Assembly: GCA_000091205.1 (NCBI GenBank)
Contig: AP006493.2
Source: Cyanidioschyzon merolae
Taxonomy: Eukaryota
Reading direction: 5' to 3' (one strand)
Length of the DNA stretch: 64,000 bases
The notes below the pieces were generated by a model, which saw only the letters and a program-made list of their open reading frames with translations, searched no databases and was not told the DNA's origin. Positions 1 through 46,287 of the stretch are shown here, one piece after another (positions within the stretch are counted from its first letter, which is position 1; each line of letters begins with the position of its first letter). A program made the translations under genes and the position numbers.

Positions 1-2
1 TT

Positions 3-1004
3 GAGGAAGATGAATCTGCGGAAGCTGAGCCAAACACAGGTGAGCGGAAGGATGATACGATTCGTTCGTATCTGTATGAAATCGGGCGCTACCAACTTCT
101 TCAACCTGGGGAGGAGGTCGAACTCTCCAGACAGGTTTGTGTCCTCATGGATTTGGAGCGATTTCAGAAGTCGTTTCGGGAGCAGCATGGCAAGTCACCG
201 ACCGAGCTGGAGTGGGCTCGAGGATGCGGCTACGGCGAAGATGTCGAGGCGCTCCGCAAGCATATCCGAGATGGAAGAAGTGCGAAGGAAAGAATGGTAA
301 CCGCCAATCTGCGGCTGGTGGTCTCCATCGCAAAACGCTATTCTAACCGTGGCGTAGCTCTGCAGGATCTGATCCAAGAGGGCTCCATTGGACTCATACG
401 AGGAGTTGAAAAATTTGATGCTGGGCGAGGATTCCGGTTCTCCACGTACGCAACTTGGTGGATACGGCAATCCATTACACGAGCAATATCGGATTCCTCA
501 CGTTCCATAAGACTGCCTGTTCACGTCCATGACACGATTTCCATGATTCGAAAGCACACCAAGGCCCTGCATACACAGCTGGGGCGTCCACCTCGCGAGG
601 ACGAAATCTGCGAAAGTGTTGGAATAGATATTGCAAAGTATCGTTTAATCATGGAATGTTCTCAGAATATTGTGAGCCTCGAAACACCCATGCACGGTAC
701 AGATGACATACACAACCTCGGCGAGTCCCTGATATCCCCAGAGGAGCGCTCTGAGGATACTGTCTCGCGAGATACCTTGCGGGATAGCATTGAAAAGGTG
801 CTGCGGTGTCTGACTGCGCGTGAACGGGAGGTTATTCGCATGCGCTTCGGCCTAGCAGACGGCCGACCGCGAACTTTGGAGGAAGTGGGAGTCAAATTTA
901 ATGTTACCAGAGAGCGCATTCGGCAGATCGAATCCAAGGCTCTGAAAAAGCTCCGAATTCCTGCAGAGAACAATTTCCTCGACGAGTATCTCACGGAGCT
1001 CTAG
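3..1004 (+). CDS. RNA polymerase sigma-70 family factor (plastid-type, nuclear-encoded), 5'-truncated at window edge
   Basis: Frame 3 is open from nt 3. The translation contains sigma-70 regions 1.2-4: YLYEIGRYQLL, ERMVTANLRLVVSIAKRY, GLIRGVEKFD, FSTYATWWIRQSITRAI, and a helix-turn-helix TLEEVGVKFNVTRERIRQIESKALKKLR. The stop is at 1002..1004. Confidence 0.85.
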   Translation, partial: EEDESAEAEPNTGERKDDTIRSYLYEIGRYQLLQPGEEVELSRQVCVLMDLERFQKSFREQHGKSPTELEWARGCGYGEDVEALRKHIRDGRSAKERMVTANLRLVVSIAKRYSNRGVALQDLIQEGSIGLIRGVEKFDAGRGFRFSTYATWWIRQSITRAISDSSRSIRLPVHVHDTISMIRKHTKALHTQLGRPPREDEICESVGIDIAKYRLIMECSQNIVSLETPMHGTDDIHNLGESLISPEERSEDTVSRDTLRDSIEKVLRCLTAREREVIRMRFGLADGRPRTLEEVGVKFNVTRERIRQIESKALKKLRIPAENNFLDEYLTEL

Positions 1005-1049
1005 GGTAGCCAGTCACTGCACCAAACACTTTCGGAGAGATTTTATAAA

Positions 1050-2575
1050 ACTGGTGATTTTACCGAGCTGTACTGAATGCGCACTGTCAGAGAAGCGAAA
1101 CGTTTGCTGTTCTTTGTGGGATAAACAAATACCTTCCCATAGACGCCTCCTAGTCTTTTTTGACCGGTCGCCTGCTACTAGTCTCAGTTTCGCCCTGTGC
1201 ATTTCGATCCTGAGAGGCTGCCCCTTAAAGTTTGCTCGTCTTCAGCACCGCAAATCTCCTGTTATTGATAGCAGCATGGGAGTCCCGGTTCACGAACTCC
1301 GCGTATGCAGCGCTGCTGGTGGACCTCACCAAAACAAGGATTCCTCGAACTCGCGCGTTCTGTGCCACTAAAGTCTCACCATCGCCCCGTTGGCAAACAT
1401 CACTTTCCTTCTGTCTACTTTCTTTTTCGTCTTCTTCTTGCTCACTTGCTCTTCATCGCTCGATGGTTTGCGAGAGGCAAATTTATTTCGTTTTTCCGAC
1501 AGAAGGCGACATCGGGGCTCCAGGATTTTCGACTCCCATGTTCATAACTTTCCCTTGGATTTCCTATTTCTTCAAATCACCACACCAGTTTATGCCCGCC
1601 AGGTGAGGACCTTCACAGAGCAAGAAGGACTTGTGAAAGAGATAATGTGCCCACTGGGACACCATGTGCTTAACGCTTCAGCGATTCGCCCGGTGGAACG
1701 ATCATTACATTTCAGGATACAAAACACTCTTTCGGTTAAGTTGAACCATGGAGCGTACGGAGTAATGAAAGGCGGCTCTACGGCGAGAGACCTGGCAAAG
1801 GCTCGAACGGAAGGGCAATTCTCAAATGCACGGTGTCCAATAGGAGGAGGTCTCCAGATTTCAGGGGAAAAGTCTTCAATGATCCGACGAAGTGGTCGAA
1901 GCTGCTGTTTGAGCCTTCTTTAGACGCCAGAACCGAGGCCACCAATAGTATCTACTGCAGCTAGAACATATGGTGATGTTCTCTTTCGCCTCGAGATCGA
2001 TTGTATATACAACGGGCTCCATGCTCCGCGAATACTCACACATGCTCCGATCGTTTCATTCGAATGACATCTCATCGACTGAAAGAATAAACCGACGTAC
2101 CTGTGCTTCATACGGCTAGTGGCGTTCCGGAAAAGCTATTGCTGCGATTTCGGTGGAGGATGGCCGTGCGTGATCTAGGGCGCTGTTTTTGCGACTACAT
2201 CGCAATGTCTGCAGGACCACGCGAGCTCCCCGCTCAGACACAGAGACGCTTGCGGTGGCTACTATTACGCCTTTTTTCTTCCCGTATGAGGGTCAACGGA
2301 TCGTATTCCATCATTGACTGGAAGCAGTCTTGGAGAATAACGGTTTTGTCGCGGAACGCATGTACTTGTTTCTTTCTTTCATTGTTCCTCAACGATCTGA
2401 GTACTGTTGTATGACTGAACTGAGGGGCGAACGCAGTCCTCCTTGCATTGTTAAGCAAAAAATATTCTCTACAAGCAATTTGTGTACAATCTATATGGTA
2501 CGCTGCGTAGAGATTTGCATGTCCTGCTCTACAGTGCGAAGAAGCATTCTATTTTACGCAGCGGGAGTAAAGCAA
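1050..2575 (-). mobile_element. TnpB/Fanzor-like element, family B copy B0 (degenerate: stops and frameshifts)
   Basis: Minus-strand pieces: a K/R-rich N-terminal ORF (2234..2458), a RuvC-I-like YVLAAVDTIGG (1920..2111), and a C-terminal RuvC-III-like fragment EFVNRDSHAAINNRRFAVLKTSKL* ending about 1228. The 3' noncoding block ggtcaaaaaagactaggaggcgtct is homologous to the 3' ends of A1/A2/B1/B3. The 5' 941 bp are identical to B1. Confidence 0.6.
1635..2575. repeat. 941-bp direct repeat, copy 1 (100% identical to 5415..6355)
   Basis: All ORF translations in 1920..2596 are duplicated exactly at +3780 nt. The two copies diverge at both ends. Confidence 0.9.
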
Positions 2576-3370
2576 GACTTGGTTTCAATAGTATAATACA
2601 AGGCGTCGATTAACGCGGTTCCTGTTACAGCAGTAGGCCATCATAGCGGGTAGACGCCCAAATACGCCTAGATTTCGTCATGGGCTCCAATTCCCAGCAC
2701 TTGCCCGTTTGAAAAGCGACGCGATCATTGTATAACTCGGACGCTGACGACCGAATGAAACGATCTCGTTCGGAAAGCGGCCTGACACAGCATCCAAATA
2801 AGCTCATCTGCCGAATTTCACCAGCGCCATCTGATCCGGTCTGTTTACACTTGCGTATAGATGCCCGGTGCGGCCTGGCGCCGAACTTGACTGCGGCTCT
2901 TCGTCGAACTTGCGACTTCCAGCGGCAGAATTTGGATAGAAGCATCAATGCTATCGAGGTTCGTTTTTTCAGCGTATTAGGATCTGTTAATATACATGCA
3001 ATAATCAGCAATCTAAAAACTGTAGTGACCCCGTACGCGCAGCTTGGATTATGTTATTTCTCTCTCTTTCGATGACATGGATGAAAGGCGGCGAATGCAT
3101 GTCTCCATGTGCTTGTAATGTGAAACGGTTCATACCTGGATAACCGCCGGCATATGATCATGAAATTCTCAAGACTTTACGGCGCGTTGAAGTCAAATTC
3201 TCATGCCGGAAGTCTGTCGAATCGACGCCTTCTACAATTTAACCATTTATGAAGCAAGTACCCATCGTTAAATTCCGATTCGTGACCGGATTCCGCAATA
3301 TTCCATGGAAACCGATGGTCGCCGCAGATGAACTCGGAGAGGGAGCATGGTGGCCTTCCAGGACGCTCTA

Positions 3371-4774
3371 TCACTGACGGTCGAGGAGCCTCCGAACTTT
3401 CTGTATGCGTTGCTCCGCGTTCAGTCCGCTGCTACTTCGTTTTTCGATTGGAACGTGCACATCGGCGTCCACCATGTGAGTAAACATCAGTGGTGCCAAG
3501 CCCGCGCACGGCTCGTTTGCAGCTTCGGAGCCCTCATCCTTGCAAAATGGAGATCCGTGCGTGGTCCGACGCAACAGTGCTCCATTGAAGATAACTTTTG
3601 TAAGATCTGCATACCATTGGAGAAGAATTGGACGCAAAATGCCTACAACGGTTGAATTTCTTGAGCATTTTCCCCATGGAGAGTCTCTCTCTAAAGCGTA
3701 ACGCCATGGAGGTTCATTCTCTCCGTAATGAATATTCCAGAGCACCAGCGGGTGCTCTGGAGCTTGGACATACTGGGGTCGTGGATCTATTCTTGGTGAA
3801 CCGTCAAGCCCAAGAAGGCTGTCCACTAGAGAAATGTTCTCTGTGCCCCGACCGATTTCCAAGAGAAGAGCAATCATGAACCTAACTTGATGGTAAAGAA
3901 ATGCCTGGCCTTCGATGGTGAACTCTAAAATGCCACGAGGGAAAAGCGCGCGATAGAACTCATCTTTTGCGAGTTCGACTGTGCATTGCAGAATAACCCG
4001 TTCTGTGTTGCCTTTCGTTGTCTCCGCATCGAACTTGCAGAAATTGGCAAAATCATGTCTTCCGACCATCTTTTTGGCTGCAGCAACCATGCTACAGATG
4101 CCTTCATCGCTAAACACATTCGGCACGAAATATTTGTATGTTCGTGAATAGGCACTGAAACGAGCCGAGAAATCATCCGCCACGGGGGCCCAGGCGTACA
4201 CTCGCACTGATGCAGGCAACTCCCGATTCAGTAAATGTATATAGTCATAAAAGTTAGTCCCCGTGCCAGGTGGAGGGCACCTTACCAAAAGCGATACGAC
4301 TTGGCCAATTGCACTGACACCCTTATCGGTGCGCCCACCACGAGCGTACTGCCAACCTTTTACAGCCCAGGTCTCACCGAACTTCTCTCGGCTGAGAGGC
4401 CTGTTCGGGGACACCCCTGTGGCGCACGTGCCGTCACTGCCAACGAACCAGTGCAAATTGGGTACCAGATTTACCTTCTCTAGCGCATAAAATAGAGCAC
4501 TCTCTACAGATTTGAATGCGATTCCACTAAGCTTCCCCGCCGAAGACGTGCTGAAGTCAGCCGGCTGAGCAGCAAAACCAGAAGGAAACGACCAACCTTG
4601 GTATGCAAGCTTCAACGCTATTTTTCGAACGCCGTACTCTTTGAAGTTGATTTCGCGAGCAGAATTCTTATTACGGGAGCTGCTCCGCTTCAGTCCTAGC
4701 AGTTGCTCCAAACGTGCAGCGTAAGCCTCCAGTTCTGCTCGGCTTAGTTTCGAAAGGTTCTGTACAGCGCTCAT
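3371..4774 (-). CDS. tRNA pseudouridine synthase, TruA/Pus3 family
   Basis: 467-aa ORF starting with ATG. It carries the TruA catalytic motif GGRTDKGVSAIGQVVSL and the Pus3-like motifs HDFANFCK, YHQVRFMIALLLEIG. Confidence 0.85.
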   Translation of the reverse strand: MSAVQNLSKLSRAELEAYAARLEQLLGLKRSSSRNKNSAREINFKEYGVRKIALKLAYQGWSFPSGFAAQPADFSTSSAGKLSGIAFKSVESALFYALEKVNLVPNLHWFVGSDGTCATGVSPNRPLSREKFGETWAVKGWQYARGGRTDKGVSAIGQVVSLLVRCPPPGTGTNFYDYIHLLNRELPASVRVYAWAPVADDFSARFSAYSRTYKYFVPNVFSDEGICSMVAAAKKMVGRHDFANFCKFDAETTKGNTERVILQCTVELAKDEFYRALFPRGILEFTIEGQAFLYHQVRFMIALLLEIGRGTENISLVDSLLGLDGSPRIDPRPQYVQAPEHPLVLWNIHYGENEPPWRYALERDSPWGKCSRNSTVVGILRPILLQWYADLTKVIFNGALLRRTTHGSPFCKDEGSEAANEPCAGLAPLMFTHMVDADVHVPIEKRSSSGLNAEQRIQKVRRLLDRQ

Positions 4775-4889
4775 CTCGAAGAAGTATACTTGGCTTCAAG
4801 AAAAGAGGATCTTTTGCCGTGATGCCGAAAAATAAGTGTCCCGCAACTTCTATAACCAAGTTGTGGAACAAACTGGTCCAAACACGAAA

Positions 4890-6355
4890 TGGTTTCCCTC
4901 CATCCAACGAAAATAAGAAAACAAAGTTGGCTCAGCGAATCGAAAGCCCCTTTCGCAAACACGGAGTAGATTTATATTCACGCGCAGACGCCTCGCAGCC
5001 TTTATCGACCAGCCACGTGCTGTCGGCCTCAGAGTCTCCTTCTGGACTTCCACCCGGAGAGGCTGCCCCATAAAGTTCGCTCGCGTCAGCGCAGCGGGTC
5101 TCGCCTTCTGCACCGCACATCTGCTGATATTGATGGCAGCATTAAAGTCTTGGTACGCGAACTCCATGCATTTATTACTTCTGGATGAACTCACCAATGC
5201 AAGCAGCTCTCGAACTAGTGCCCTCAGTGCCACTTGCTGCTGTGTCAGTTCTTCATGTTTTTCAATCGCGGATGCGCCCCGCTCGCTCTTCTCCACCTCG
5301 ACTATCTGCATTGTGCATCCCGGCACATCCCTAAGATGTTTTATTTTTGAACATGTACGCATTTCTTCTTGCCTTTAGATGACAACTTTCCCGGAGGCAG
5401 AAGAGCTCGTGGAAGAAAGAGATAATGTGCCCACTGGGACACCATGTGCTTAACGCTTCAGCGATTCGCCCGGTGGAACGATCATTACATTTCAGGATAC
5501 AAAACACTCTTTCGGTTAAGTTGAACCATGGAGCGTACGGAGTAATGAAAGGCGGCTCTACGGCGAGAGACCTGGCAAAGGCTCGAACGGAAGGGCAATT
5601 CTCAAATGCACGGTGTCCAATAGGAGGAGGTCTCCAGATTTCAGGGGAAAAGTCTTCAATGATCCGACGAAGTGGTCGAAGCTGCTGTTTGAGCCTTCTT
5701 TAGACGCCAGAACCGAGGCCACCAATAGTATCTACTGCAGCTAGAACATATGGTGATGTTCTCTTTCGCCTCGAGATCGATTGTATATACAACGGGCTCC
5801 ATGCTCCGCGAATACTCACACATGCTCCGATCGTTTCATTCGAATGACATCTCATCGACTGAAAGAATAAACCGACGTACCTGTGCTTCATACGGCTAGT
5901 GGCGTTCCGGAAAAGCTATTGCTGCGATTTCGGTGGAGGATGGCCGTGCGTGATCTAGGGCGCTGTTTTTGCGACTACATCGCAATGTCTGCAGGACCAC
6001 GCGAGCTCCCCGCTCAGACACAGAGACGCTTGCGGTGGCTACTATTACGCCTTTTTTCTTCCCGTATGAGGGTCAACGGATCGTATTCCATCATTGACTG
6101 GAAGCAGTCTTGGAGAATAACGGTTTTGTCGCGGAACGCATGTACTTGTTTCTTTCTTTCATTGTTCCTCAACGATCTGAGTACTGTTGTATGACTGAAC
6201 TGAGGGGCGAACGCAGTCCTCCTTGCATTGTTAAGCAAAAAATATTCTCTACAAGCAATTTGTGTACAATCTATATGGTACGCTGCGTAGAGATTTGCAT
6301 GTCCTGCTCTACAGTGCGAAGAAGCATTCTATTTTACGCAGCGGGAGTAAAGCAA
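4890..6355 (-). mobile_element. TnpB/Fanzor-like element, family B copy B1 (chimeric: 5' part identical to B0, 3' part divergent)
   Basis: ORF 4850..5362 (minus strand) has the zinc-finger/RuvC-III-like C-terminus ...CSKIKHL...YQDFNAAINISRCAVQKARPAALTRANFMGQPLRVEV. Upstream, the same RuvC-I-like YVLAAVDTIGG and N-terminal ORFs occur as in B0. The conserved 3' block ...ggctgcgaggcgtctgcg lies about 4985..5060. The 3' boundary at about 4890 is approximate. Confidence 0.6.
5415..6355. repeat. 941-bp direct repeat, copy 2
   Basis: Identical to 1635..2575. Confidence 0.9.
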
Positions 6356-7093
6356 AATCGAGTTGAACGACTATCTGACGCCTACGCAAAGCGATTCCGC
6401 GTACCGTGTATCTGCAAAGTAGCACTTCTTAATGGTAGAGCCGCAATTGAGAACGTTCGGAGTGTTTTCCTGGTTCTGCTGGATGGATTTTTGGTAAACT
6501 ATATTTAATCTTCTAGTGGGAGGATGATTGCGCGGGCAAAACCATATTTTCCAGGATGAGTCGTACTGAAAGAAGCACAGTATTCACTATGCCGGGCGAG
6601 GTAGGTGCTAGTTTGGGTTTGACCTCACGCGATGCGCACAACGGCTGCGGAATACGCACAACTCGATACTGATCGTCGAGTCGGCAAGACTGCAACATGC
6701 TCATGGCTCAGGTCATCCGAAGAGAAACCTCACCATAAATACCGTGTTCATACTTCACATCGTACATAAGAAAAATTACTTTTCAGGCCCTCTACAATAA
6801 ATAAAATTGGATTCCACTTATCGCGTTTATTGAGAGATTTACCGGACGCTTCCGTCGCAAAAAAAAGAAGAGACATAAGAAACTTGACCCACTGTGTAGA
6901 AGGAGAGCAAACACCGCAAAGCCCTGCGAAAACCTCATGCGGTGATGTCGCGCCCTGCTGCGATCGTAACGAAGGCCATTCGTCGCCACGCGCAACGCAG
7001 GGCAAGAGACGGCTTGCGTACGGTGCAGAACACCGAACTGGCTGTGAAGAGGATCTCTTCTTTGTCAGTACTAAAAGGCGTCGCTTTCTGGGA

Positions 7094-8485
7094 ATGGAGC
7101 AGCTTGCCAAGGATCTTTTTGAGATAGGTGCGGTCAAGTTTGGCACGTTCAAACTCAAGTCTGGGATAGCGTCTCCATTCTATGTCGATCTGCGCGTTGC
7201 TGTCTCGTATCCTCGAGTTCTGAGAAGCATTGCGGCTCTGTACCTAGAGTGCTTGCAGGACTTTTCTGGCGCTTTCGACGTTATTTGCGGGGTTCCATAC
7301 ACTGCGCTCCCTTTTGCGACAGCAATGGCTGTGCAGGGAGACTTACCTATGGTTATGTGTCGAAAGGAGGTCAAAGACCATGGAACACGGCGAGTTGTTG
7401 AAGGTGCTTTCACACAAGGCTCTCGTTGCTTAATAATCGAGGACGTTGTTACAAGTGGTTCAAGTATTCTGGAAGTTGTGGGCGCATTGCGCGCAGAGGG
7501 TCTCAAAGTGGATCACGCGATCGTCTTGCTTGATAGGGAGCAAGGCGGGTGTGAGGCGCTTCTCGGCCAGGGAATAGGGCTCCGATCTGTTTTCCGCATC
7601 AGCGACCTCGTTGGGACGCTGCGGAATTTGAACTTGCTTGAGCCGGGGAAGGTGGATATGATTCTAGATTTTATTCGCACGGCCCGCGCAGCATCAGATG
7701 TTAAGCGCCCCGAAACAAACGTTCCATCCGCATTGCCAGTCGCCGCATCAAGTTCTTCCCCGGTGCGAGATCAACTTTACTCAATCGCAGAAAAAAAGAG
7801 AAGCATATTATGCGTTGCGGCAGACGTACAATCGACTAAGGAGCTTCTTGGAATTGCAGATGCAGTAGGCCCCCACATCTGTGTTCTGAAGTTGCACGCC
7901 GATATTATCCAGGACTGGACGACGGACACATCAAGACGCCTTCGAGAGCTCGCGGACAAACACAGTTTCATGCTTTTTGAGGATCGAAAATTCGCTGACA
8001 TAGGAAACACGGTTGTTGCACAGTTCAGCGCAGGCGTACATCGGATCTCTTCCTGGGCGGACATTGTCAATGCACACGCCATCCCGGGCCCTGGACTGAT
8101 TGAGGGCCTGCGCCACGCTTGCGCAATTTCCGGCAGAATGATTGGCCTCCTGTTAGTCGCACAAATGTCCAGCAAAGGGAACTTGATTGACGAGAGATAC
8201 ACTGCTACATGCCTGCGGATGGCCCGCGAAGCGTTTCCGTTCTGTATCGGCTTCATTGCCCAGGAGCGTCTGGACCCGACAGGGAAGCTCTTTGTGATGG
8301 CGCCTGGTGTGCAACTGGATTCAAAGGGCGATCAATTAGGCCAACAGTACAATTCACCACAGTATCTGCTGAAGCGCAAGGGTGTCGACTTCCTTATCGT
8401 TGGCCGCGGTATCTACGGGAGTGAAGAGCCAGCAAAGGCGGCCCAGATGTACAAAGAGTTGTCGTGGAGCGTCCTTCACGGCTAA
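7094..8485 (+). CDS. UMPS: UMP synthase, bifunctional orotate phosphoribosyltransferase / orotidine-5'-phosphate decarboxylase
   Basis: The N-terminal half has the OPRT PRPP-binding motif CLIIEDVVTSGSS and FGTFKLKSGIASPFYVD. The C-terminal half has the OMP decarboxylase motifs ICVLKLHADII, LFEDRKFADIGNTV, GRGIY. The first ATG is at 7094; the tracked ORF 6830..8485 starts on TTG and its first 88 codons are an unlikely extension. Confidence 0.9.
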   Translation: MEQLAKDLFEIGAVKFGTFKLKSGIASPFYVDLRVAVSYPRVLRSIAALYLECLQDFSGAFDVICGVPYTALPFATAMAVQGDLPMVMCRKEVKDHGTRRVVEGAFTQGSRCLIIEDVVTSGSSILEVVGALRAEGLKVDHAIVLLDREQGGCEALLGQGIGLRSVFRISDLVGTLRNLNLLEPGKVDMILDFIRTARAASDVKRPETNVPSALPVAASSSSPVRDQLYSIAEKKRSILCVAADVQSTKELLGIADAVGPHICVLKLHADIIQDWTTDTSRRLRELADKHSFMLFEDRKFADIGNTVVAQFSAGVHRISSWADIVNAHAIPGPGLIEGLRHACAISGRMIGLLLVAQMSSKGNLIDERYTATCLRMAREAFPFCIGFIAQERLDPTGKLFVMAPGVQLDSKGDQLGQQYNSPQYLLKRKGVDFLIVGRGIYGSEEPAKAAQMYKELSWSVLHG

Positions 8486-8940
8486 TTCCTAATGGGCAGA
8501 AGCAAGCGTCGGCTCCCACAAAGTTCAGTAGAACGGCGGGGGTCAGTTGCCACGAACGCTTTACGTGCGGCATCAAGATGATATTTCATTGCGAATGGAG
8601 TTCGTCGACGTCAGTTGCATCCGCAGAATGCTTCTTTGTTTCGGATATGTCCGCGGCCTGTGCCCGCAACGAATGTTCCTAGAAGTACATTTCACGGCGC
8701 CTTGAACATGTAGTTAAGATAAGCGCTCGAAATCGTCCCTGATTCGGCAGTGACTGTCCCTAGAGCTGGATCCTATGGTTTCTTGACCCTGTGGCTACAA
8801 TATGCGCTCGACACCGTCGAAGATCAGGGAATCGCTCTAGTGTCGGCCTGATTTCCACCAAGTGCACTCTGCACTTTTTGAAATTTTTGGAGGACCCATT
8901 AAAAAAATAAATGCAAGGATTCCTAAGAATAGAGATACAG

Positions 8941-10552: not shown

Positions 10553-10821
10553 TGGAAACAAACGCCTTTCGAAAGTCGAACGACGCCAACCGTGTTCAGT
10601 TGTGGCGATCTACCTGCCCCAGACAAGATGTTTCCAATTGACGTGCAGACGCCTCCCCGTCTTTTTGGATCGGCCACGCACTACTACTTCCAACTGTTTC
10701 TCATATAGTTCCACTTTGACAGGTTGTCCCATAAAATTCTCTCTTGTCGACTCTGGAGGCCTTCTTTCCATCACCGCACATTTCCTTATATTGATAGCGG
10801 CGTTAAAGTCTCGTTCACAAA
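10553..10821 (-). ncRNA. candidate omega-RNA-like conserved 3' noncoding module of A1 (includes terminal hairpin cgtcgttcga-ctt-tcgaaaggcg)
   Basis: Runs from the nuclease stop codon to the element boundary. About 80-85% nucleotide identity to A2 38951..39140, although the proteins are only about 75% identical. The core ...aaaagacggggaggcgtctgcac... is shared with family B 3' ends. Confidence 0.35.
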
Positions 10822-13600
10822 CTAAATACGTTTCTTGCCATCATTGGCTGTACTTACTAGTGCAAGTGGCCCACGAACTTTCTCCATCCTTTCCATTTGC
10901 TCTTCCGTCAGTGCACCGTTCTTTGCTATTTCCTCAGGGCTCCGCTGACACTTTCCCATCTCAACCCTCTGAAGTGTACAACCCAGCTCGTGGCGTATAT
11001 ACGTTGTTTGAAATTCATCTACAGGTACTGTAACAAAACGCCGTGCACGCTCCTTGTTCACTCTCGTCTTTGGAGCTGGAGTAGTCCCTTTATGGGTCTT
11101 CCAGCGCCCTGCTCCGTATGCTAATACGAGCCTCTGACTTTCATCCTCTTTGAGAGCACTCAACTCATCGAAAAAATTCGCGAACGCCCGCTGCTTCCCA
11201 TTGTATAGATTCATTCGCAAACGAGCCCACCGGCGCTCGGTATACTCCTCCCACAGCGCATCCCAATGCGCAATGCGAACTTCCATGAATTTCCGAAAAG
11301 CGTCAAAGTCCGCTCCTCGGCTCGTCACCTCGCTCAAAGCTTCTAGGTGATCCTTCATTCCTGAATTCCAGCTCTCGATTTTCTTCCTCGCATTCATTAT
11401 ACCCGATTCTCGATAGTATCTCGCTATCGAGAACCTCAGTAGACGCATGTCTTCCCGACGTAAACTACCGTCAGTACCATCTTCCGCACACTTCGGTGCT
11501 GCGATGGTGATGATATTTGTGTTCCCAGCGTCCGCGCCAACGACAAAGTAGTTATGCTGCACTTTCTGTGTCGCTGGATCCGCCTCCTTCTTTTCTTCAT
11601 CCTTCACCGCGTCAAAGACAAGGTCGTTATCCTGCACCTTTTGCATCGCAGGATCCGCTTTTTTTTTTTCTTTTCTTCATGTTTCTTCACGGGCGCAGCC
11701 GAGGGCGGAACTGGACGATCTTTCTTCAACCGCTGATAGTGTACATTCAAGGCTACTCCATCGGTTTCGATCAACCCAGTGAATACCTTTTGTTTGCTGA
11801 CTTTGAGACGTTTGAAAGCGAAGATATTCTTCCAGTACGTCTCACGGGCTTCACCGGAGAACTCCTCCCTGCTAACATTGAACTCTGGACTGATCTCCCT
11901 AATGATGCCATGAAGGATTCTGGAGTCGATACTCACGAAATGTGACTTGAGGTTGCACAACAGAACGCCATTGAAGCGCTACCCCATTAGGACAGCCTCC
12001 CGTCTCTCCCACTCTTCATTTGTCTCTACACTCAGCTTCATTTCCGCCTTGCGTTCGAGCTCTCGGTCCAGAAACACGACATAGCGCAGAATGAGGCGAT
12101 AGTATCTTTCCTTATCTTTTTTCAACTCTGATATCTTTTCTGTTGGATTCGCCAGCCCCAAGACTGTACGGTGCTCTTGTCTAGCCGCACGGATTATAGA
12201 AGCTTCATTCGTGCTCCTGTGTCACTTTTTCTTGTCGACAAATTCGATCTCATCTTCATACTTTCGATCGTTCTTGATGCCACTGATAATCGCCCATTTT
12301 CCTTTGCGAGAGATGCCCGAGTAGAGTGCTAGCACGGCGTGTATCATGAAAAGTTCGAGGTTCACGATCGGTTGGTTCTTCAGATTCGTGAGGTACTTAA
12401 TCGCCCCATAGTCGTAAACATCCGAGTCACCCCTGTATCGGGTACCCTCGAAGCTATAAAAGGCATGTTTTCGTGCAGGGCGTGCACCAGCTCATTTTCC
12501 CTTCGCGCTTCCTCTGTGCCAAGCATCAGGTGACGAATAAAGGTCTTATCGAAAAACTCGTCCGGAATCTCGACCGTTTCCATGTGCGTCACTTCGCGAT
12601 ACACCTCACTCGCCAAATGCATCAGTCCTGACGACGCCTTGACAATACTCTTGGAGTATGACGCAACACGTCTTTCGATAGCGTCTCGCAACTTGTCCCT
12701 GTAGGGATCCTTGATATGTCCAAGAAGAAAGGTTTTCACCACCATCTCGTCGCACAGTTGTCATTCTTGCCGCTTACGACGTAGGGCCTCTCCATTTCGG
12801 TTCTACTTCTCTTCCTTTTCTTCTGGACCTGGTACTGTTTTTTGTTTTCTTCTGGCAGCCAGCGACACTGAGCCTCTAGGATCGTGGACTTGCTCTTCCA
12901 TAACTTTTCTTTTTTTAATTTTTTGAAAAAGAACGCTCTTTTACAGCTTGCGTCACACACCGCGAAAATTCACTTGAATGAACTTGCTTGAGGGCTGAAA
13001 CACAATTGAAATGAAAAAGTATTCTTTGCTACAACTTCAATGCAAATGCAACTTGTGTGTTGGAACAACAAGAAAAAGACTGGTTAGGATCGAGTTTCCC
13101 TTCAACGACACCGTGCATGTCGCGTCTCGTGACTGCCTTCTCCCCCAGATGCGCGTATCGAGCGCACCGTATAGGAAGAAAGGCAGAGACTCACGGTTCA
13201 CTATCAACGTTGTAACAGTATCTTCCTCCTCTATGATAAACGTTAAAAGGAGGGCAAATGTTTCCTTATTTTGGAAAGTTTACCATATAGGCGAAAGTTC
13301 CCGCGAGCTGTACGAGTCTGCTGGTGAATGCGGTGTGCGCCGCGCAGTGTACAAAATTCCATGCGCTTCCATGCGCTCAGCTGTGCTAGTAAGTAGAAAA
13401 GTCGTCAGTTACAGAGCACGTGTGTATGCCACTTGCAGATCCTGAAAAGGACAACTTCTTCACATTTTACGTGGGAGATGCAGGTTTAGATCTACTCCAA
13501 GTTATAGATTCTTCAAACCACAGGGTGACGCACCCATTCAATCACAGTCGTGGCTGCGAAAATGCAGCTTAATTGGATGCGATTTCATTGTTGTTCTAGA
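10553..13600 (-). mobile_element. Fanzor1-like (eukaryotic TnpB-like RuvC nuclease) element, family A copy A1; coding region about 10822..12960 is disrupted
   Basis: Minus-strand ORF pieces are homologous to A2 piece by piece: a K/R-rich region (12736..12960, ...QKKRKRSR...), MVVKTFLLGHIKDP..., ...GPANPTEKISELKKDKERYYRLILRY..., ...[15 protein letters not shown].... They include Ruv[17 protein letters not shown], the zinc-finger-like VPVDEFQTTYIRHELGC...KCQRSPEE, and RuvC-III FVNE-TLTPLSI, which is broken by a TAG and a 1-nt deletion relative to A2's FVNRDSNAAINI. There is also a tandem ~55-bp duplication plus a T11 tract at about 11600..11670. The about 190-nt 3' noncoding tail and about 900-bp 5' noncoding region are conserved with A2. 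Confidence 0.7.
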
Positions 13601-13618
13601 GGACTGTAGGCGCGGTGC

Positions 13619-21175: not shown

Positions 21176-21556
21176 CAATATTCTTCGTTGCGCTGATCAG
21201 ATTAGCAAGGCCGGAGCAATGTGTACGTATATCAGGAAAGATTTTGCGAGGCGATTGTTGAACGATAACTGCGTTCAATTATTCGACATTACTGAGTGTA
21301 GGGCTAACCCACCGAGCATTTTTCTTTCCATGCGCTACTCTGGTTACTGAACCCTGTCCTTTGCTGCTCAAGCAAAGCTCTTTGCTCTATGGTGTAGCAG
21401 ATAACTTCCGAGTACGCTCCTCCAATCTCTAAATTTTCGGGTAACGATCCTACCGTCTTGAGCTTTTTGTTCACTTAGCGCCAAATTCTTTGAAAAAACG
21501 ACTCTATCCGCGGATTCTTCAAGGTTTCTCTTTAATGTGGCCAATAGAGTTTTCCA

Positions 21557-23080
21557 ACTCAAGTTTGTTTCACTCTCGCTGCAGTGGATGCCAGGAGATG
21601 CAACTCTCTATGCAGCGCAACGTATAGATTGTAGACGAATTGCTTCTAGGGTACATTTTTTACTGAACGGCGGAAGGAAGACAGCGTACATCCATCAGTT
21701 CAGTCACACCGCAGTACTCAGATTACAGATGATTAATGAAAGAAGGAAAAATACAGGTATATGCCATCCGCACCAAAAACCGATATTCTCACAGATTGCT
21801 TGTGGCCAACGGTAGGAAACGACCCGTTGATCACCTTAATGAGAGCAAAAGCGACACCAGAAGCCGCGACACCCGTCTCTGTTTCTGAACAGCTTGTTTA
21901 CGTGGTCCTGAAAGCACTGGGATACAGCCGCACAAGAATGTTCAGTTTCACGCATTTTCATCTCCCACCGAAATCGCAATGACAGCGTTCCTAGAACGTC
22001 GTGATCGGTATGAAGCACAGGGAGGTCGGTTGCTTTTTTCGATAGATGAGAATTCCATCGGACGAACCGGTCGGAGCGAACATGCGTATTAACAGAGCAT
22101 GGAGCCCGTTGTATATACAATCGATCTCAAAGAGAACGACGATATAATTTGTTCTAGGCGCAGTGGATACATTTGGTGGCTCTAGTTTTAACTCCCCGAG
22201 AAGGCGCATAAAATCCCTCCCACTTTTTTAAATTATTGAAGACTTTTCCTCGACGCTAGGCGACGTCCTTCTGTTGGCCAACGTAGCGTTTCACCGGTTT
22301 CCTTGTGTTCGAGTTTTGCTGATTCTGTCGGGGTAGAGATGCTTCTAATTCCTCCCTACTCTCAGTAGCAGAACCTCATTGAAGAAATGTTTTTTATCAT
22401 GAAATGTAATGATCGCTCCATTGGACGAATCGCTAGACCATTCAGCACCGTAGCGCCGGGGCATACTTCGTCCTTGTTCCGCAAGTGATTCTCGCTCCAG
22501 GAAGAGATTTAGCTGAGGTCATGAACAAGTGCGTTCATTTTCAAGAAATTGCACCTAAGGAATGAGCTGCGGAGCTCATTTCAAAAGGTCGAGAGGGGGA
22601 GAAGCCAGCAGGGCGCTTCGGAGATAGGAAAGCACAGGGAGCTGACAGGGCAGCAAATGGCAATGAGGGCAAGGGATATAGGAATATTTGCATTGTCGCG
22701 TTCCAGCAACGGCACTGCAAGCATTGAGTTCGTGAACTTAGGCTCCAAAGCCGCCATCAATATCAGACAGTGTGAGGTATTGAAAACGAGACCCGCGGAG
22801 CTGAGGCGAACTTACTTTGTGGGGCGGCCTCTCAGAGAAGAAGTGTACAAGTTGAAGCTCCAGCCGATAGCATTCGGCCGGGCAAAACACTGGAACGCGT
22901 CCGTGCGTGGGTAATATTGAACCCCTACGGGTTGTGGCGCATTACTCATTTAACCTACAGCAAACTGAGCCCGTGGATAGACGTTTACTCACGGCCCGTT
23001 TGGGGTTTCAACAGCCGCAACTGGCTACGTCTCTGGTTTGTAGATGTTCATCGTCGCGATTCCTCAAAGGGGACGTTTGT
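21557..23080 (+). mobile_element. TnpB/Fanzor-like element, family B copy B2 (degenerate)
   Basis: The 5' 250 nt align to the reverse complement of the B0 5' end. ORF 21761..21982 (...SVSEQLVYVVLKALGYSR...) is homologous to the B3 N-terminal ORF. A RuvC-I remnant sits at about 22100..22200 (nucleotide match to 1920..2020, reverse complement). The C-terminal ORF 22549..22914 has IEFVNLGSKAAINIRQCEVLKTRPAELRRTYFVGRPLREEV. Confidence 0.55.
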
Positions 23081-35999: not shown

Positions 36000-38900
36000 T
36001 TTCTTTTTTTGTTTTCTTCTGTGCGCAGTGAAGTATCCATCGATCTGTGCCATAATTCCAAGTTACGTTACCCATCCTTCTTCTCCGATATACTGGTCTT
36101 TTCATACGTTCTATCGTGTACCGAGTGCCTGCCATGAGCTCCAGCAATAGCGCATACAGCACCGGTGCTGCCGCTGCACGGAGGCAGAACGGCGTTGCCG
36201 TACCACGGGGAGTATCAACTCGAGGCGTGATTCATTCAACGTGGAATCCGGATTCATAATCATTCTGGGAGCCTGCAAGCTCTGCAGACAGAACTACTGC
36301 CTGCGGCAGCGCGAAGCGATATGTTAGGAGAGAACTACGACCAGGGTGACGCCCAAACGCAGCATACCCGCTCCTAATCCCAGGATAAAGTGGGTTTCGG
36401 ACGAGCTGCTCAGACCTCTTGACAGCAACGGGCACTGGGGAGCATGAAGCACGAGTCTTGTAGACTCTTCCGACTCGCGGGACCTTCCGTCTATAAGGTA
36501 AACTTTCAACAATATTGAAACCTCTTCCCCCTTTCAACGTTCACCTTAGAGGAGGGAAAGAAATTATTATATCGCTGCTAGTTAGTCTAGAGTCTCTGTT
36601 CTTTGTTCTAAGTAGCGCGCTCGGTACGCGCTGCTCCATATCTGAAAGGCATGAGATACAACGAGCTTTTCGCCGTTGAAGGGAAACACGATCCTGACTA
36701 TTCGTTTACTTGTTGTTCTAACATAAAACTTGTATTTGCATTAAAGTCGTAGCAAACTATAGTTTCCAGTTCAATCGTGTTTCAAAGCTCGAGTTAGTGC
36801 ATTCAAGTGATTTTTCGCAGATTCTACCAGAAGCGCTCAAAGTGCGTACGTTTTCAAAAAGATAAAAAAGGAAAGTTATTGAAAAGGAATTGGAGGATCC
36901 CGGAGACCCAGTATCGCCAGCTGGCGGAAATAAACGACAAACGATGCCGAGCCCGGAAGAAGAGGAGAAGATAAAGAAGGAAAAGGGGAGGCCCGACGCC
37001 AAGGGCCGCAAGAAAGACGACAGTACGATGAGACGGTGGTGGAAGCCTGTCTTCTTAAACATGTAAGGGATCCGCACAAGGAAAATTTGCAAGATGCCAT
37101 AAGAATTCGTGTCCAGTTGTACCCCAGGAGTGTTCGTAAGGTTTCTCTAGGACTGATGCATTTGGTGAACGAGATGTATGGCGACGTGACGGACATCAAA
37201 ACAGTCGAGGTTCTGGGAGACTTATTCGACAAGCCCTTTATTCGTCACCTGATGGCTGGCACCGGGGAAGCGTCGAGGAGAAATGAACTAGTGCATGCCC
37301 TCCAGGAAAACTAAGCCAAACTCCGATTCGACGGTACTCGCACTAGGGTTACTCGGATATTTACATCTACAGAGCGATGAAGTACCTCATGGGCCTGAAG
37401 AACCATATGATCGTGAGCCTCAGTCGTTTCGTGATACGCGACGCCTTTGCGCTGTACCCGGGCCTGTCTCGCAAAGGAATATGGGCAATTATCAATGGCA
37501 TCACTAACGATGGTCAGAACGAAGACGAGATCGAATTTGTCGACAAGAAGACATCAAGCAGGAGAAAGAATGAGGATCCTGCAATCCGTGCGGTTATTCA
37601 AGGGCATCGTGCGGTATTGGGGCCGGCGAATCCAGCAGAAAAGATATCAGAGTTGATAAAAGACGAAGAAAGATACCATCGCCTCATCCTTCGGTATTTC
37701 GCGTTTTTGGACCGAGAACTCGAACGCAAGGCAGAGATGAAGCTGAGTAGGGGAAAAATGAAGAGTCGGAGAGACGGAAGGCTGCCCTAATCGTTAAGCG
37801 CTTCACCGTCGTTTCGCTGTGCAACATCAAGTCATAATTTGTGACTATCGACTCCGGACTCCTCTACGGTATCATGAAGGAGATCAGTCCCGAGTTCAAT
37901 GTTAGCAGGGAGGAGTTTACCGGTGAAAACAGGGAGACGCACTGGAAGAACATCTTCAGTTTCAAACGTCTGAACGTGAGCAAGCAGAAGTTCTTCACTG
38001 GGATGATCGAAACCGATGGAGTAGCCATGTGTGTAAACTATCGGCGCTAGAGGACAGATCATCCATTTCCGCCCCCGGTTTCGCCCGTGACGAAGGAAGA
38101 AGAAAAGAAGGAGGCGGATCCTGCGATGCAGAAAGTGCAGGATAACGACTTTTTGGTTGGCGCTCACCCCGGAAACACAAATATCATAACCATCGCTGTA
38201 CCCAGGCGTGCGGAGGATGGTACTGACGGTAACTTGCTTCAGAAAGACATGCGTTTTTTGAGGTTCTCGAGAGCAAGATTCTATCGAGAATCGGGAATCA
38301 TGAATGCAACGAAGAAAATTGAGACATGGAATGCAGGAATGAAGGATCACGTAGAAGCTTTGAGCGAGGTGACGAGCCGCGGAGCGGACTTTACAGCTTT
38401 TCTGAAATTCATGGAAGTTCGTGTTGCCCATTGGGATGCGCTGCCGGAGAAGTATACCAAGCCCCGGTGGGCTCGTCTGCGAATGAATCTGTATTGTGGT
38501 AAGCAGCGGGCGTTCGCGAATTTTTTCAATCAGCTGAGTGCCCTGAAGGAGGACGAGAGCCAAAGGCTCGTAGTGGCGTATGGAGCAGTGCGATGGAAGA
38601 CCCAAAGAGGGTGTACACCAGTTCCAACGACAAGATCGTACAAGGAGTGCGCAAGGCGTTTCGTCACGATACCTATAGATGAGTTCCGAACATCGTACAC
38701 ACACCATGAACTGGGGTGCACACTTCAGAGGGTCGAGATGGAAAAGTGCCAGAGGAGTCCTGAAGATATAAAAAAGTACGGACCGCTGACGGAGGAGCTA
38801 ATGGAAAGGAGAGCGAAAGTTCGAGGATTGCTTGCATTAGTAAGTACAACCATTAATGGCAAGAATCGTTTCGAGTTTGTGAATCGAGACTCTAACGCCG

Positions 38901-39140
38901 CTATCAATATATGGAAATGTGCTGTGATGGATCCAAAACCTACGGAGTAGACAAGAGGGGACTTTATTAGACAACCTCTCAAAGTGGATATATATGAAAC
39001 AAAGTTGGAATCAGTAGTGGATGGCCGATCGAAAAGGACGGGAGGCATCTGCACCTCGGTTGCACACGTCTTGTCTAGGGCGGGTTTCTCGCCACTGCTG
39101 TGCACCGCTGGCGTCGTTCGACTTTCGAACGGCGTTGTTG
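36000..39140 (+). mobile_element. Fanzor1-like (eukaryotic TnpB-like RuvC nuclease) element, family A copy A2; coding region about 36944..38950 is disrupted
   Basis: ORF pieces: a K/R/E-rich region (36944.., MPSPEEEEKIKKEKGRPDAKGRKKDD), 37036..37314, 37377..37790, 37841..38050, and 38087..38950. The last carries Ruv[18 protein letters not shown] (the catalytic Asp of A1's GADAG is His here), the zinc-finger-like [17 protein letters not shown]...KCQRSPED, and RuvC-III RFEFVNRDSNAAINIWKCAV. There is an in-frame TAG at 38048..38050. The ATG is lost (ACG/GTG at 37033..37038). About 900 bp of 5' noncoding region are conserved with A1. Confidence 0.7.
38951..39140 (+). ncRNA. candidate omega-RNA-like conserved 3' noncoding module of A2, ending in hairpin gcgtcgttcga-ctt-tcgaacggcg (39111..39134) at the element boundary
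   Basis: The 190 nt after the stop are about 80-85% identical to the A1 tail. They contain a core (gatcgaaaaggacgggaggcatctgcac) that is also present at the 3' ends of B0, B1, B3. Homology with A1 stops abruptly right after the hairpin. Confidence 0.35.
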
Positions 39141-44559: not shown

Positions 44560-46125
44560 TACCGGCGACAACTCAGGCTGGATTTGTACTCAAGAGCCGT
44601 CCATAATGTAAACGCTCAATGGAGCGAAACTGTCTCACAACCATAGTGTAAATTAATACCTACCCACAGACGCCACGCAGCCTTTTTGACCAGCCGTATG
44701 CTATCTGTTACAGCTGCTGCTTGTACATCTCCAGCCTGAGAGGCTGCCCCACAAAGTTCGATAGTGTCTGATCCTTGGATCTCGTCTTCAGCAATCCACA
44801 TCGTCTGATGTTGACGGCGGTGTTGAAGTCTCGGTTTTACGGACTACATGCGTTTATTGCATCTGGTTGAGCTCATCAATGCAAGGATTCCCAGAACTCG
44901 CACCCTCTGGCCCACAGCAGCCTCTTCGTCGTCCCGTCGGGCATACACCTTTTTTTCTATGTCCCTTCTTTTTCGCATTCTTCTTTTTCACTTGCTTTTC
45001 GTCGTTAACTGGTCGGCAAGCTGCGGATGTTTTCACATTTTCCGGCAGCCGGCAATGGCGGAGCTCTAGGATGCCTCACTTCAATGCCAGTACCTTTCCC
45101 CTGGATTTTTTATTTCCTCAAATGAAAGCAGTTCTTTACGACCTTAAACGAGAGAGTTTCCAGAGGGAGACGGAATTGCAGAAGAAAGACGAAATGTGTT
45201 CCAGTCTGCCACCGTATACTGACCGCTTCAGCGATTCGCTCTGGAAAGCGACTGTTAAGTTTTGCGACAAAAGACCCTTCTTCGATATGGTCAAATCGTC
45301 GAGTCCACGCAGGAATGAAAAGCAGTTCTCCCCCAGTAGAATCCGCAAATGCTCAAACGCAAGAGGAACCGTGAAATGCAGCGTTGTCCGATAGACGGAC
45401 GTCGCCAGACGGCAGCGGAAAGTGTTTAGTTATTCGAAGATGTGGTTGGTACTGCTGGATGAGCCTTCTCTATGAGTGAAACTGATGCCACCAAATGAAT
45501 CCACTGCAGCGAGAACCGATGATGGCGCCCTTTTCTTAGAGTTCAGTCGAACATTCAACGGGCTACCGCTCCGCGAATTCCCATACATGCTCCGAAATTT
45601 TCGTCCGAAACACTCCTCATAGACTGAAAAAAAACCAACGTGCCGCTGCTTCATATCGATAGAACCTTTCCTGGAACTTTGTTGTAGTAGCGATTTCGGT
45701 AGACGCTGGCCGTGGATGAACTAGGACTCCTGTTTTGCGACTGAATCCCAGTGTTTTCAGCACAATATGAACAAGTTGTTGAGAGACAGAGACGCTCTTG
45801 GTGGCTAATATAGTTTCTTTCAGCTCCCGTAAGGTGATCAACAGCTCGTTTTCTATCTTTGACAGCAAGCAGTTCTCAGTAATATCGGTACTGGGCGCGG
45901 GTTGCATATACGTGTTTCTTTCTGTGCTCCTCAAGCACCTGCGTATTGTTATATCACTGAATTTAAGAAGGAAAACAGTCCTCGTCGCTCTGTTGAGCAA
46001 AGCATATGTCCTGCGAACAATTCGTGTATGGTATATAGAGTGCATTGCATCGTGATTTCGATTTCCTGATATACACTGCGAAATAATATTCTGTCACACT
46101 CAGCGGGGGCGGAATAAAACTCAGC
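44560..46125 (-). mobile_element. TnpB/Fanzor-like element, family B copy B3 (degenerate)
   Basis: Minus-strand N-terminal ORF 45617..46045 (...SVSVSQQLVHIVLKTLGFSRK...). RuvC-I-like SVLAAVDSFGGISF (45430..45654). C-terminal remnant NRDFNTAVNIRRCGLLKTRSKDQTLSNFVGQPLRLE at about 44700..44830. The 3' block ggtcaaaaaggctgcgtggcgtctgtggg and the 5'-end nucleotide homology to B0 define the limits. Confidence 0.55.
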
Positions 46126-46287
46126 AGAACGTTTATAAGGCTTGCAGATTCAGAAATGGGTTTTATGAAGCACTCTTGACGATGTCACAGACAGTCACTT
46201 TGTTCTCCAGGTTCGCACGGTTGAGCACTCGACATGCACCACAGAGATAATGAGCTAACTAGATACGTCACGAGGTTGCGGTTTGCC

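Follow-up and report, generated by a model that had tools for sequence, protein, structure and literature searches.

Transposase-Fanzor1 transposon relics flanking PUS3 in Cyanidioschyzon merolae and a 941-bp identical tract probably shared through ectopic gene conversion

Two members of a repeat family, here B0 and B1, flank a pseudouridine synthase gene in the nuclear genome of Cyanidioschyzon merolae 10D. They raise the question of how two repeats can be identical over 941 bp at one end and belong to different subfamilies at the other. The initial annotation of the window (the stretch of 64 kb [64,000 nucleotides] of the 10D genome analyzed here; counts of further copies rest on metagenome contigs) took family B to be a compact TnpB- or Fanzor2-like gene for a protein of about 450 amino acids and B1 to be a chimera of two of its subfamilies. 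We conclude instead that the copies are very probably dead relics of Tc1/mariner-IS630-type elements with deletions in an accompanying Fanzor1 gene, and that B0 and B1 probably came to share their block by ectopic gene conversion.

The identity of the two blocks is complete (941/941, in direct orientation, by blastn and a repeat search of the window), as had been claimed. It is far beyond chance (0.69^941) in a family whose other pairs are 67 to 70% identical. The label 5' applies to the block when it is read in gene orientation, along the minus strand, and not otherwise. B0 and B1 lie 3.8 kb apart, and the gene between them was identified as PUS3 by Pfam PF01416 (PseudoU_synth_1) and BAM80441.1. 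Outside the block the two copies are 61.8% identical, with large indels. Their 3' parts are nevertheless not unrelated, being homologous at family-level divergence. In the alignment, the indels of B0 are shared with B3, in keeping with the collinearity that had been noted, and those of B1 with B2. The peptides EFVNRDSHAAINN of B0 and YQDFNAAINISRCAV of B1 were confirmed on the minus strand.

Table 1. Coordinates of repeats, pseudogenes, and PUS3 in the window
Feature	Positions	Strand	Details
B0, whole element, type I	1076..2591	-	14-copy alignment; every frame interrupted by stops and frameshifts
B0, type I Fanzor1 remnant	1141..1545	-	CMe-1A 895-967 joined to 2849-3082; 2 stops and a frameshift
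B0, DDE_3 pseudogene	1563..2503	-	Start codon lost (GCG); family stop TAG 1565-1563; multiple stops and frameshifts
Identical block, B0 copy	1635..2575	-	100% identical to 5415-6355; lies where the stitched consensus matches DDE_3
PUS3 (tRNA pseudouridine 38-40 synthase)	3371..4774	-	467 aa, intact, between B0 and B1
B1, 170-aa ORF, type II Fanzor1 remnant	4850..5362	-	Matches CMe-1A 2737-3088
B1, whole element, type II	4922..6371	-	Transposase pseudogene and type II Fanzor1 remnant; family alignment
B1, DDE_3 pseudogene	5341..6283	-	Stop TAA 5343-5341
Identical block, B1 copy	5415..6355	-	100% identical to 1635-2575
Second CMe-1A copy	10563..13321	-	Consensus positions 494-3169
B2, type II, decayed	21549..22966	+	Family alignment, CMe-1A match
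Family A, near full-length CMe-1A Fanzor1	36057..39134	+	85% identical to published consensus
B3, type I, decayed	44609..46133	-	Family alignment, CMe-1A match

It is highly improbable that this arrangement is an assembly artefact, with copies that are not identical, or not both present, in 10D. Collapse is a classic problem with exact repeats, and metagenome assemblers pass a collapsed repeat node twice, so that identity inside metagenome contigs is not independent proof. However, the B0-PUS3-B1 layout and all four repeat-to-unique junctions recur in eight metagenome contigs (99.4 to 99.7% identical to the window), each from a separate sample, and stand in the finished 10D chromosome. In four short contigs from other assemblies, the sequence breaks off 119 to 141 nt inside the repeat on either side of the PUS3 spacer, just as a true exact repeat should cause; the repeat must therefore exist at both positions. 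The 10D sequence is reported to have been finished clone by clone (Nozaki et al. 2007).

The 5' kilobase of the family B copies (the head), with the whole block inside it, is a pseudogene of an IS630/Tc1-mariner-type DDE_3 transposase and not the N-terminal half of a TnpB gene, as the block had been read. The block comprises a 72-nt 5' leader and approximately the first 289 codons of this pseudogene. Individual copies are too broken for recognition: the B0 single-copy frame scores 13.6 bits against DDE_3, and Pfam searches of single ORF fragments or stop-masked raw frames returned nothing or hints at E = 0.035 to 0.064. Only frame-stitched consensuses were informative, with E = 5.4e-13 (49.5 bits) for DDE_3 from three copies and E = 6e-24 (85 bits, profile positions 4 to 137 of 146, Pfam gathering cut-off 28.6) from 13 copies, beside weak matches to HTH_Tnp_Tc3_2 and HTH_33. 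The head consensus carries the motifs FSVDETSFGRN, VLLLDNVAFHHS, and PPYAPWFNPIEG, and alignment with intact homologues identifies the catalytic D, D, (34-35) E triad (SVDE, LLLDNVAFH, and PPYAPWFNPIE). Intact DDE_3 proteins of 292 to 319 aa match the head at E values of 1e-31 to 1e-23 over 89 to 94% of the query. The consensus thus has the HTH, the DDE fold, and the D...D...(35)E motifs of IS630/Tc1-mariner DDE_3 (PF13358) transposases, but none of the window copies is intact and their termini cannot be recognized.

The block spans almost exactly the transposase module, and other copies carry insertions of elements named TE-N2_CMe at similar head/tail positions. These observations could fit two landings of a mobile or duplicated unit that was active recently, one beside each Fanzor remnant, which we consider only slightly conceivable. 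Both ends of the block lie within family homology, where B2, B3, and 10 further copies align with it in register, and diverged paralogous sequence continues on either side of it. In B0, family homology extends some 16 nt beyond the 5' edge of the block, and these 16 nt differ between B0 and B1; at the 3' edge, a 4-nt indel is followed by sequence of approximately 62% identity. Such a unit would also have landed without target-site duplications and with a broken transposase. Finally, among 29 Cyanidioschyzon-like loci, a scan that required intact LLDNVAFH or DE[TK]SFGRN motifs, and is thus not exhaustive, found no further copy that differs from the window block by 5% or less.

The 3' 350 to 500 bp of each copy (the tail) represents what internal deletion has left of the known 734-aa Fanzor1 gene of CMe-1 (Bao & Jurka 2013). 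Family A, which the initial annotation rightly called Fanzor1-like, is the published CMe-1A and the source family of the tails. By blastn and alignment, the tails match the CMe-1A consensus with two different pairs of breakpoints, at 70 to 77% DNA identity over approximately positions 2737 to 3088 and, in type I only, also over 888 to 967. Type I copies (B0 and B3) retain CMe-1 residues ~1 to 50 and ~643 to 729 (about 90 C-terminal codons), and type II copies (B1 and B2) retain residues ~612 to 729 (about 125 C-terminal codons). Relative to CMe-1A, the internal deletions measure ~1.75 to 1.83 kb (~1.75 kb of ORF in B0, which keeps about the first 50 codons). They remove RuvC-I (GADPG) and RuvC-II (DEFRTS), and in place of the RD motif of RuvC-III, B1 has QD and B2 has LG. 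Both deletion types keep the last ~350 nt of the Fanzor locus, the end at which an omega-RNA would be expected; no Rfam family matched. A phmmer search of the CMe-1 Fanzor against PDB sequences gave no match. The 170-aa ORF of B1 covers about the last 125 Fanzor1 codons, without RuvC-I and RuvC-II; selection on it is discounted, given that most other copies have this frame interrupted.

Each copy is therefore a decayed composite, with a DDE_3 transposase pseudogene 5' and a deleted Fanzor1 remnant 3'. This order, on one strand, is kept in all B copies, with approximately 17 nt between the transposase stop and the Fanzor ATG in B0. ORF listings and frame translations revealed no intact ORF in B0, B1, B2, or B3. 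Stops occur in every frame (24 in the single frame counted), the longest minus-strand ORF in B0 and B1 is 170 aa, and no ORF on either strand exceeds 177 aa. The element ends are fuzzy in the 14-copy alignment, with a TA before the 5' end in some copies only; no clear TA duplications were detectable on B copies, and a search for terminal inverted repeats (TIRs) found none that were consistent on the four window copies. Family B is assigned to Tc1/IS630 from its transposase and by comparison with intact relatives.

These observations leave next to no room for a compact TnpB/Fanzor2-like nuclease gene, or for B1 as a chimera of two TnpB subfamilies. The RuvC-III-like motif (NRDxNAAINI) near the 3' end of each copy and a weak Pfam match to Cas12f1-like_TNB (E = 0.14) are what speaks for such a gene. 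In contrast, the transposase in the 5' kilobase refutes it, no frame is open, and only the last 90 to 125 Fanzor codons are present, derived from the 734-aa Fanzor1 of CMe-1 and not from a small TnpB. Family B shares with prokaryotic TnpB and Fanzor2 only the RuvC-III-proximal motif, inherited from Fanzor1, and lacks a single ORF, RuvC-I, RuvC-II, and the WED and REC domains. Its size of 1.5 kb is due to deletion, not compactness.

Intact units, with a TIR, a DDE_3 transposase, a full Fanzor1, and a second TIR, are common in other metagenomes. At 41 of 52 non-Cyanidioschyzon loci, a Fanzor1 homologue lies downstream of the homologous transposase on the same strand and is full length wherever the contig extends far enough. 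One such Fanzor1 (locus L030) is 42% identical to CMe-1 over residues 14 to 702 (E = 6e-172), and TIRs of 28 to 33 nt surround both genes in four of six loci examined. Cyanidioschyzon-like contigs yielded at least 10 more decayed B copies with the same two tail types (except at one locus, where a TE-N2_CMe element stands in place of the tail) and no unit with an intact transposase and a full Fanzor1. Similarly, in PUl-1, PUl-2, and PGv-1, a mariner-like DDE transposase lies upstream of Fanzor1 on the same strand (Bao & Jurka 2013, PMC3627910). The PUl-1 transposase is 29% identical to the B head consensus (E = 1e-6). In contrast to these Fanzor1-bearing Tc/mariner elements, the C. merolae B copies have an internally deleted Fanzor, both genes are pseudogenes, and TIRs and TA duplications are not recognizable.

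We infer that the block was homogenized by gene conversion, in a single or a recurrent event. In a neighbor-joining tree of 13 heads, no bootstrap value exceeds 50% and the topology is a star: all pairs are 30 to 33% apart save B0 and B1, which at 0% are an outlier. The initial annotation had anticipated discordance between head and tail trees; the tails do pair, B0 with B3 and B1 with B2, by their deletions, but the star tree of the heads does not resolve into types. Given that B0 and B1 share the block and differ in 3' subfamily, one of the two is recombinant, for which conversion is the best explanation. That it should be B1 in particular does not follow, as the block is equidistant (30 to 33%) from type I and type II heads, and its identities to B2 and B3 (70.0% versus 68.5%) do not resolve the donor. 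Neither B nor Fanzor sequence is present within ±10 kb of the orthologous PUS3 locus in Cyanidiococcus yangmingshanensis (62% protein identity), which therefore gives no donor information. As in other cases of ectopic (interlocus) conversion, an identical in-register tract lies inside otherwise diverged paralogues a few kilobases apart, both copies are kept, and neither the unique flanks nor the PUS3 spacer has been altered. What differs from the usual case is that the substrates are neutral transposon relics of two structurally different subfamilies. Within CMe-1A copies, SNPs between strains are bunched in patches, a pattern suggestive of frequent ectopic conversion among repeats in the C. 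merolae genome. The event itself is routine repeat biology.

It is scarcely credible that the blocks owe their identity to selection on a function, such as that of an RNA or plus-strand ORF, and not to conversion, although plus-strand ORFs of 177 aa (1390-1923) and 92 aa (5425-5703) overlap them: the block is as far (30 to 33%) from every family member as these are from each other and hence is not slowly evolving, Rfam and tRNA scans of the window gave no match, a 103-aa ORF inside the block has no record as a called gene by exact look-up, and selection alone cannot keep two paralogues from diverging when each of them is drifting away from the family.

Under conversion, the following history is proposed. 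In the ancestral unit, a CMe-1-type Fanzor1 gene would have stood downstream of a DDE_3 transposase gene on one strand. Two independent internal deletions in the C. merolae lineage would have removed most of the Fanzor gene, and the resulting type I and type II forms reached several sites and afterwards decayed, each copy on its own, to approximately 31% pairwise divergence. Non-reciprocal homologous repair (ectopic gene conversion/SDSA), once or repeatedly, would then have overwritten 941 bp of one transposase pseudogene. The tract would extend from ~16 nt inside the element end to the 4-nt indel ~70 nt before the transposase stop, just ahead of the point where collinearity between tail types is lost. 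Homologous repair is normally very inefficient at ~30% divergence; thus, either the B0 and B1 heads have been homogenized repeatedly since insertion or the event was a rare one. In one metagenome contig, both block copies carry the same six differences from 10D. This pattern is the one hint of ongoing concerted evolution, but no proof of it, because the SNPs fall within one assembler bubble and the sample is possibly mixed-strain; a de Bruijn assembler collapsing the repeat in such a sample could generate it.

The main value of these results is a correction, as scans that flag NAAxNI motifs would miscount such relics as compact TnpB/Fanzor genes. In addition, CMe-1, left unclassified in 2013 (Bao & Jurka 2013, PMC3627910), gains a superfamily context through its Tc1/IS630-type DDE_3 partner, and the two-gene DDE_3-Fanzor1 unit proves to be widespread in environmental sequence. 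Derivatives without an intact Fanzor gene still multiplied, which is relevant to the question of whether the host transposon requires Fanzor in order to spread.

A broader scenario, which we regard as tentative and rather less probable than its converse, would join these elements: CMe-1 would stem from a Tc1/IS630-type transposon with transposase and Fanzor1 that split into the B and CMe-1A lineages, with conversion between B0 and B1 ongoing. CMe-1A combines a TE-N2_CMe-like 635-bp 5' module with the full 734-aa Fanzor, whereas B combines the DDE_3 module with Fanzor stubs. The B lineage may have kept the transposase and deleted Fanzor twice independently. The CMe-1A lineage may have kept Fanzor while TE-N2_CMe replaced the transposase, the last 29 nt of whose ORF may survive: CMe-1A 869-897 matches that stretch of the B transposase ORF at 25 of 29 positions, a score reached by 0 of 500 shuffles. 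Ongoing short-range conversion in a recombination-proficient haploid alga may uphold the B0/B1 identity. If this scenario is true, the shared 3' ~350 nt (a putative omega-RNA and right end) would be the part required in cis, Fanzor loss would not have prevented amplification, and PUS3, bracketed by a 941-bp direct repeat, would be prone to deletion.

We conclude that family B consists of relics of a dead composite transposon, each a DDE_3 transposase pseudogene followed by a stub of a known Fanzor1, and the evidence indicates that two of these relics, B0 and B1 on either side of PUS3, were homogenized over 941 bp by gene conversion. The initial annotation had taken family B for a compact TnpB-like gene, a reading that does not hold: none of the four copies in the window (B0 to B3) contains an intact ORF, with stops throughout all three minus-strand frames. 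The 5' kilobase (the head) carries, in fragments, motifs typical of IS630/Tc1 transposases. A frame-stitched consensus of three heads matches Pfam DDE_3 (E=5.4e-13); a 13-copy consensus, which restores a near-whole ORF with two frameshifts and one stop left, does so at 85 bits (E=6e-24, profile positions 4-137 of 146) and also weakly matches the Tc3 and IS630 HTH. Among 5.8 billion proteins searched, intact DDE_3 proteins of 292-319 aa, one of them also with HTH_33, match the head over 89-94% of the query (E 1e-31 to 1e-23) and share the motifs SLDETSFGRN, VLLLDNVAFHHS, and PPYSPWFNPIE; that search returned no intact transposase more than 40% identical to B. By these profile and protein matches, the 941-bp block is a 72-nt leader plus ~289 codons of a transposase pseudogene. 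The DDE_3 homology along the head rules out a TnpB N terminus. The B0 pseudogene has lost its start codon; its family stop codon occupies 1565-1563.

The 3' 350-500 bp (the tail) shares homology with the end of family A (44% amino acid identity, E 4e-22), which was correctly described as Fanzor1-like and is CMe-1A, a Fanzor1 element published by Bao & Jurka (2013, PMC3627910). Type I tails (B0 and B3) match the CMe-1A consensus at ~888-967, a segment made up of the initial Fanzor codons and the sequence just 5' of the ATG, and at ~2840-3083, and type II tails (B1 and B2) match at ~2737-3088 only. The two types are the products of two independent internal deletions, ~1.75 kb and ~1.83 kb long, in a Fanzor1 gene of 734 codons, which in B0 began ~17 nt 3' of the transposase stop codon. 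RuvC-I and RuvC-II are missing from the B tails, B1 and B2 have a mutated RuvC-III "RD", and stops or frameshifts interrupt most tails; the clean 170-aa frame of the B1 tail is a chance survivor. Elsewhere in the window, a solo CMe-1A 5' module corresponds to TE-N2_CMe of Bao & Jurka. Family C has a far more diverged Fanzor1-like remnant (CMe-1 ~416-696, 28-36% identity, minus strand), and its two long copies, 99.5% identical and 22.9 kb apart, are a further case of old relics that were recently duplicated or converted.

Coordinates of the repeat features (window positions unless a contig is named)
Feature	Coordinates	Strand	Remarks
Block in B0	1635-2575		941 bp
Block in B1	5415-6355		941 bp
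CMe-1A copy	36057-39134	+	84-86% identical to 3169-bp consensus
CMe-1A copy	13321-10563	-	84-86% identical to 3169-bp consensus
Solo CMe-1A 5' module	52459-53032		consensus positions 1-575, 75% identity
Family C copy	24735-27696		2962 bp
Family C copy	47681-50642		2962 bp
Family C partial copy	20681-21177		inverted, 497 bp, 99%; directly upstream of B2
TE-N2_CMe next to B	L021:4810-5444
TE-N2_CMe next to B	L021:7711-8344
TE-N2_CMe next to B	L026:5401-6034		inverted

The full-length ancestral type of B occurs elsewhere. An intact transposase homologue (P0021) has, 50 nt 3', a Fanzor1 ORF that aligns with 566 residues of CMe-1 at 32% identity (E 2e-78). When the transposase alignment was used to scan metagenomes, 80 loci came up; a CMe-1-like Fanzor1 lies directly downstream on the same strand in 41 of the 52 that are non-Cyanidioschyzon-like, and for most of the other 11 the contig ends before the downstream gene. 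Terminal inverted repeats of 28-33 nt flank both genes in four of six loci inspected. The CMe-1A consensus itself keeps, at 869-905 (~window 36830-36870), the 3'-terminal 29 nt of a B-type transposase ORF, stop included, adjoining the Fanzor ATG on its 5' side (25/29 identical; score 36 versus 16.6 ± 2.0 for shuffled sequences, reached by 0/500). This remnant suggests that CMe-1A descends from a transposase-Fanzor composite as the complementary derivative, with Fanzor kept and the transposase lost. The architecture of Fanzor1 in Tc/mariner elements has already been described for PUl-1 and PGv-1 (Bao & Jurka 2013, PMC3627910), and the B consensus aligns with the PUl-1 transposase (E 1e-6). What is new is the family-level annotation inside this known kind; a by-product is the evolutionary tie of CMe-1A to a Tc1/IS630-type partner, together with evidence that amplification continued in Fanzor-deleted derivatives. 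Cyanidioschyzon-like hot-spring contigs hold at least 10 further B copies; in nine of ten the tail is just a stub of type I or type II, and the remaining one, on contig L021, has a TE-N2_CMe element where the tail should be.

TE-N2_CMe lies directly after the head on L021, at most ~30 nt from the point equivalent to the B0/B1 block end, and touches the tail 3' end on L026; this adjacency may reflect an insertion preference or a recombination hotspot. On a contig with AT-rich coding sequence (L013:1-8568; Logan SRR13287422), an intact DDE_3 and Fanzor1 pair neighbors Peptidase_M11, protein kinase, 2OG-Fe oxygenase, and helicase genes and could come from a giant virus or protist with an active element. 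Fanzor residues ~512-606 come immediately after the transposase in a non-Cyanidioschyzon relative (L076:2183-3290); thus, internal Fanzor deletions 3' of this transposase arise in other lineages too.

The claim that B0 and B1 share an identical, identically oriented 941-bp segment was borne out by blastn and a repeat search (941/941), "5'" being meant in the minus-strand sense, as the peptides first reported sit on that strand. The remaining pairwise matches among the four copies are 67-70% identical. The block occupies columns 86-1035 of the four-way alignment, in register with the family. On its 5' side, family homology continues for ~16 nt in which B0 (CTATTGAAACCAAGTC) and B1 (GTCGTTCAACTCGATT, near the family consensus) differ; its 3' end is a 4-nt indel, where identity falls directly to ~62%. 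Past the block, B0 and B1 are 61.8% identical, with indels of 47, 20, 10, and 5 nt whose states are common to B0 and B3 and to B1 and B2. The 3' parts thus differ strongly, as initially stated, and B0 is collinear with B3; they are still homologous to each other and fall into two structural subfamilies.

Mis-assembly does not account for the block. By exact look-up, the arrangement was also retrieved on eight long metagenome contigs (L001-L007 and L009), each from a different JGI sample; they are 99.4-99.7% identical to the window and include the two block copies and the four junctions, although identity within such a contig is no independent proof, as a collapsed repeat node can be traversed twice. 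Three short contigs from other assemblies (3085, 3085, and 3121 bp) comprise the spacer plus 119-141 nt of repeat at each end, and a fourth (2899 bp) enters the repeat by ~30 nt. Breaks just inside a repeat are how de Bruijn assemblers behave at a true exact repeat, and the presence of the repeat at both positions is secure.

All pairs among 13 heads are 30-33% apart and their neighbor-joining tree is a star (no bootstrap >50%), so the copies derive from one old burst followed by independent decay; B0 and B1, 0% apart, are a gross outlier. Because the block is in register, has diverged paralogous edges, and leaves the PUS3 spacer and unique flanks untouched, the pattern points to non-reciprocal homologous repair (gene conversion or SDSA) between neighboring paralogues, itself an ordinary event. 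Neither insertion of a fresh element, with ends of its own, nor unequal crossing-over, with gain or loss of the spacer, matches the pattern. Template switching, also proposed initially, is excluded in its transposition-coupled form on timing, as the family has been dead for ~30% divergence. With a type I tail on B0 and a type II tail on B1, one copy of the pair is a head/tail recombinant; naming B1 as the chimera went further than a star-shaped tree, which leaves the donor undecidable, allows.

In metagenome contig L005, the same six block positions differ from C. merolae 10D in both copies, five with the B2 state, and hardly any SNPs occur in the surrounding 6.8 kb of any strain. This is only suggestive of homogenization after strain divergence, because a mixed-strain assembly could look alike: all six sites lie inside a 266-bp stretch and would make up a single assembler bubble. 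Recombination between 30%-diverged sequences is very inefficient, a difficulty that long-term recurrent conversion would remove. In a CMe-1A copy, 9-10 SNPs cluster within 45 nt (11139-11182) in L005 and L007, resembling a short tract converted ectopically from another CMe-1A copy; such patches hint at frequent ectopic conversion between repeats in the C. merolae genome.

The PUS3 and lycopene cyclase proteins of the window exactly match C. merolae 10D BAM80441.1 and BAM80445.1 (852,849-bp chromosome); the window thus comes from the compact nuclear genome of a red alga, in which long unbroken ORFs (PUS3, UMPS, and sigma factor) adjoin repeat islands without ORFs. Differences from L001-L009 are uneven, with 2-6 across 1-6800 (14 in L005, owing to the block SNPs) and 40-75 over the next 8 kb (6800-14800), including 15-20 in UMPS in most strains; the step near 6.8 kb resembles the edge of a recombination block or the trace of a recent sweep. 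In the orthologous PUS3-sigma factor region of Cyanidiococcus yangmingshanensis (L097; VWRR01000010.1, 501153-522559), where PUS3 is 62% identical, no B or Fanzor sequence occurs within ±10 kb, and the stretch is free of transposon relics; the insertions therefore either occurred in the C. merolae lineage alone or have since been lost from the other, and this locus did not yield the unconverted B0/B1 state. The PUS3-sigma spacer measures 930 bp there versus 2366 bp in C. merolae. The order of PUS3, sigma factor, and Myb is the same in both, whereas rearrangement has affected UMPS, a 499/500-aa ORF, CofH, and lycopene cyclase, and in L097 PUS3 has Coq4 upstream of it.
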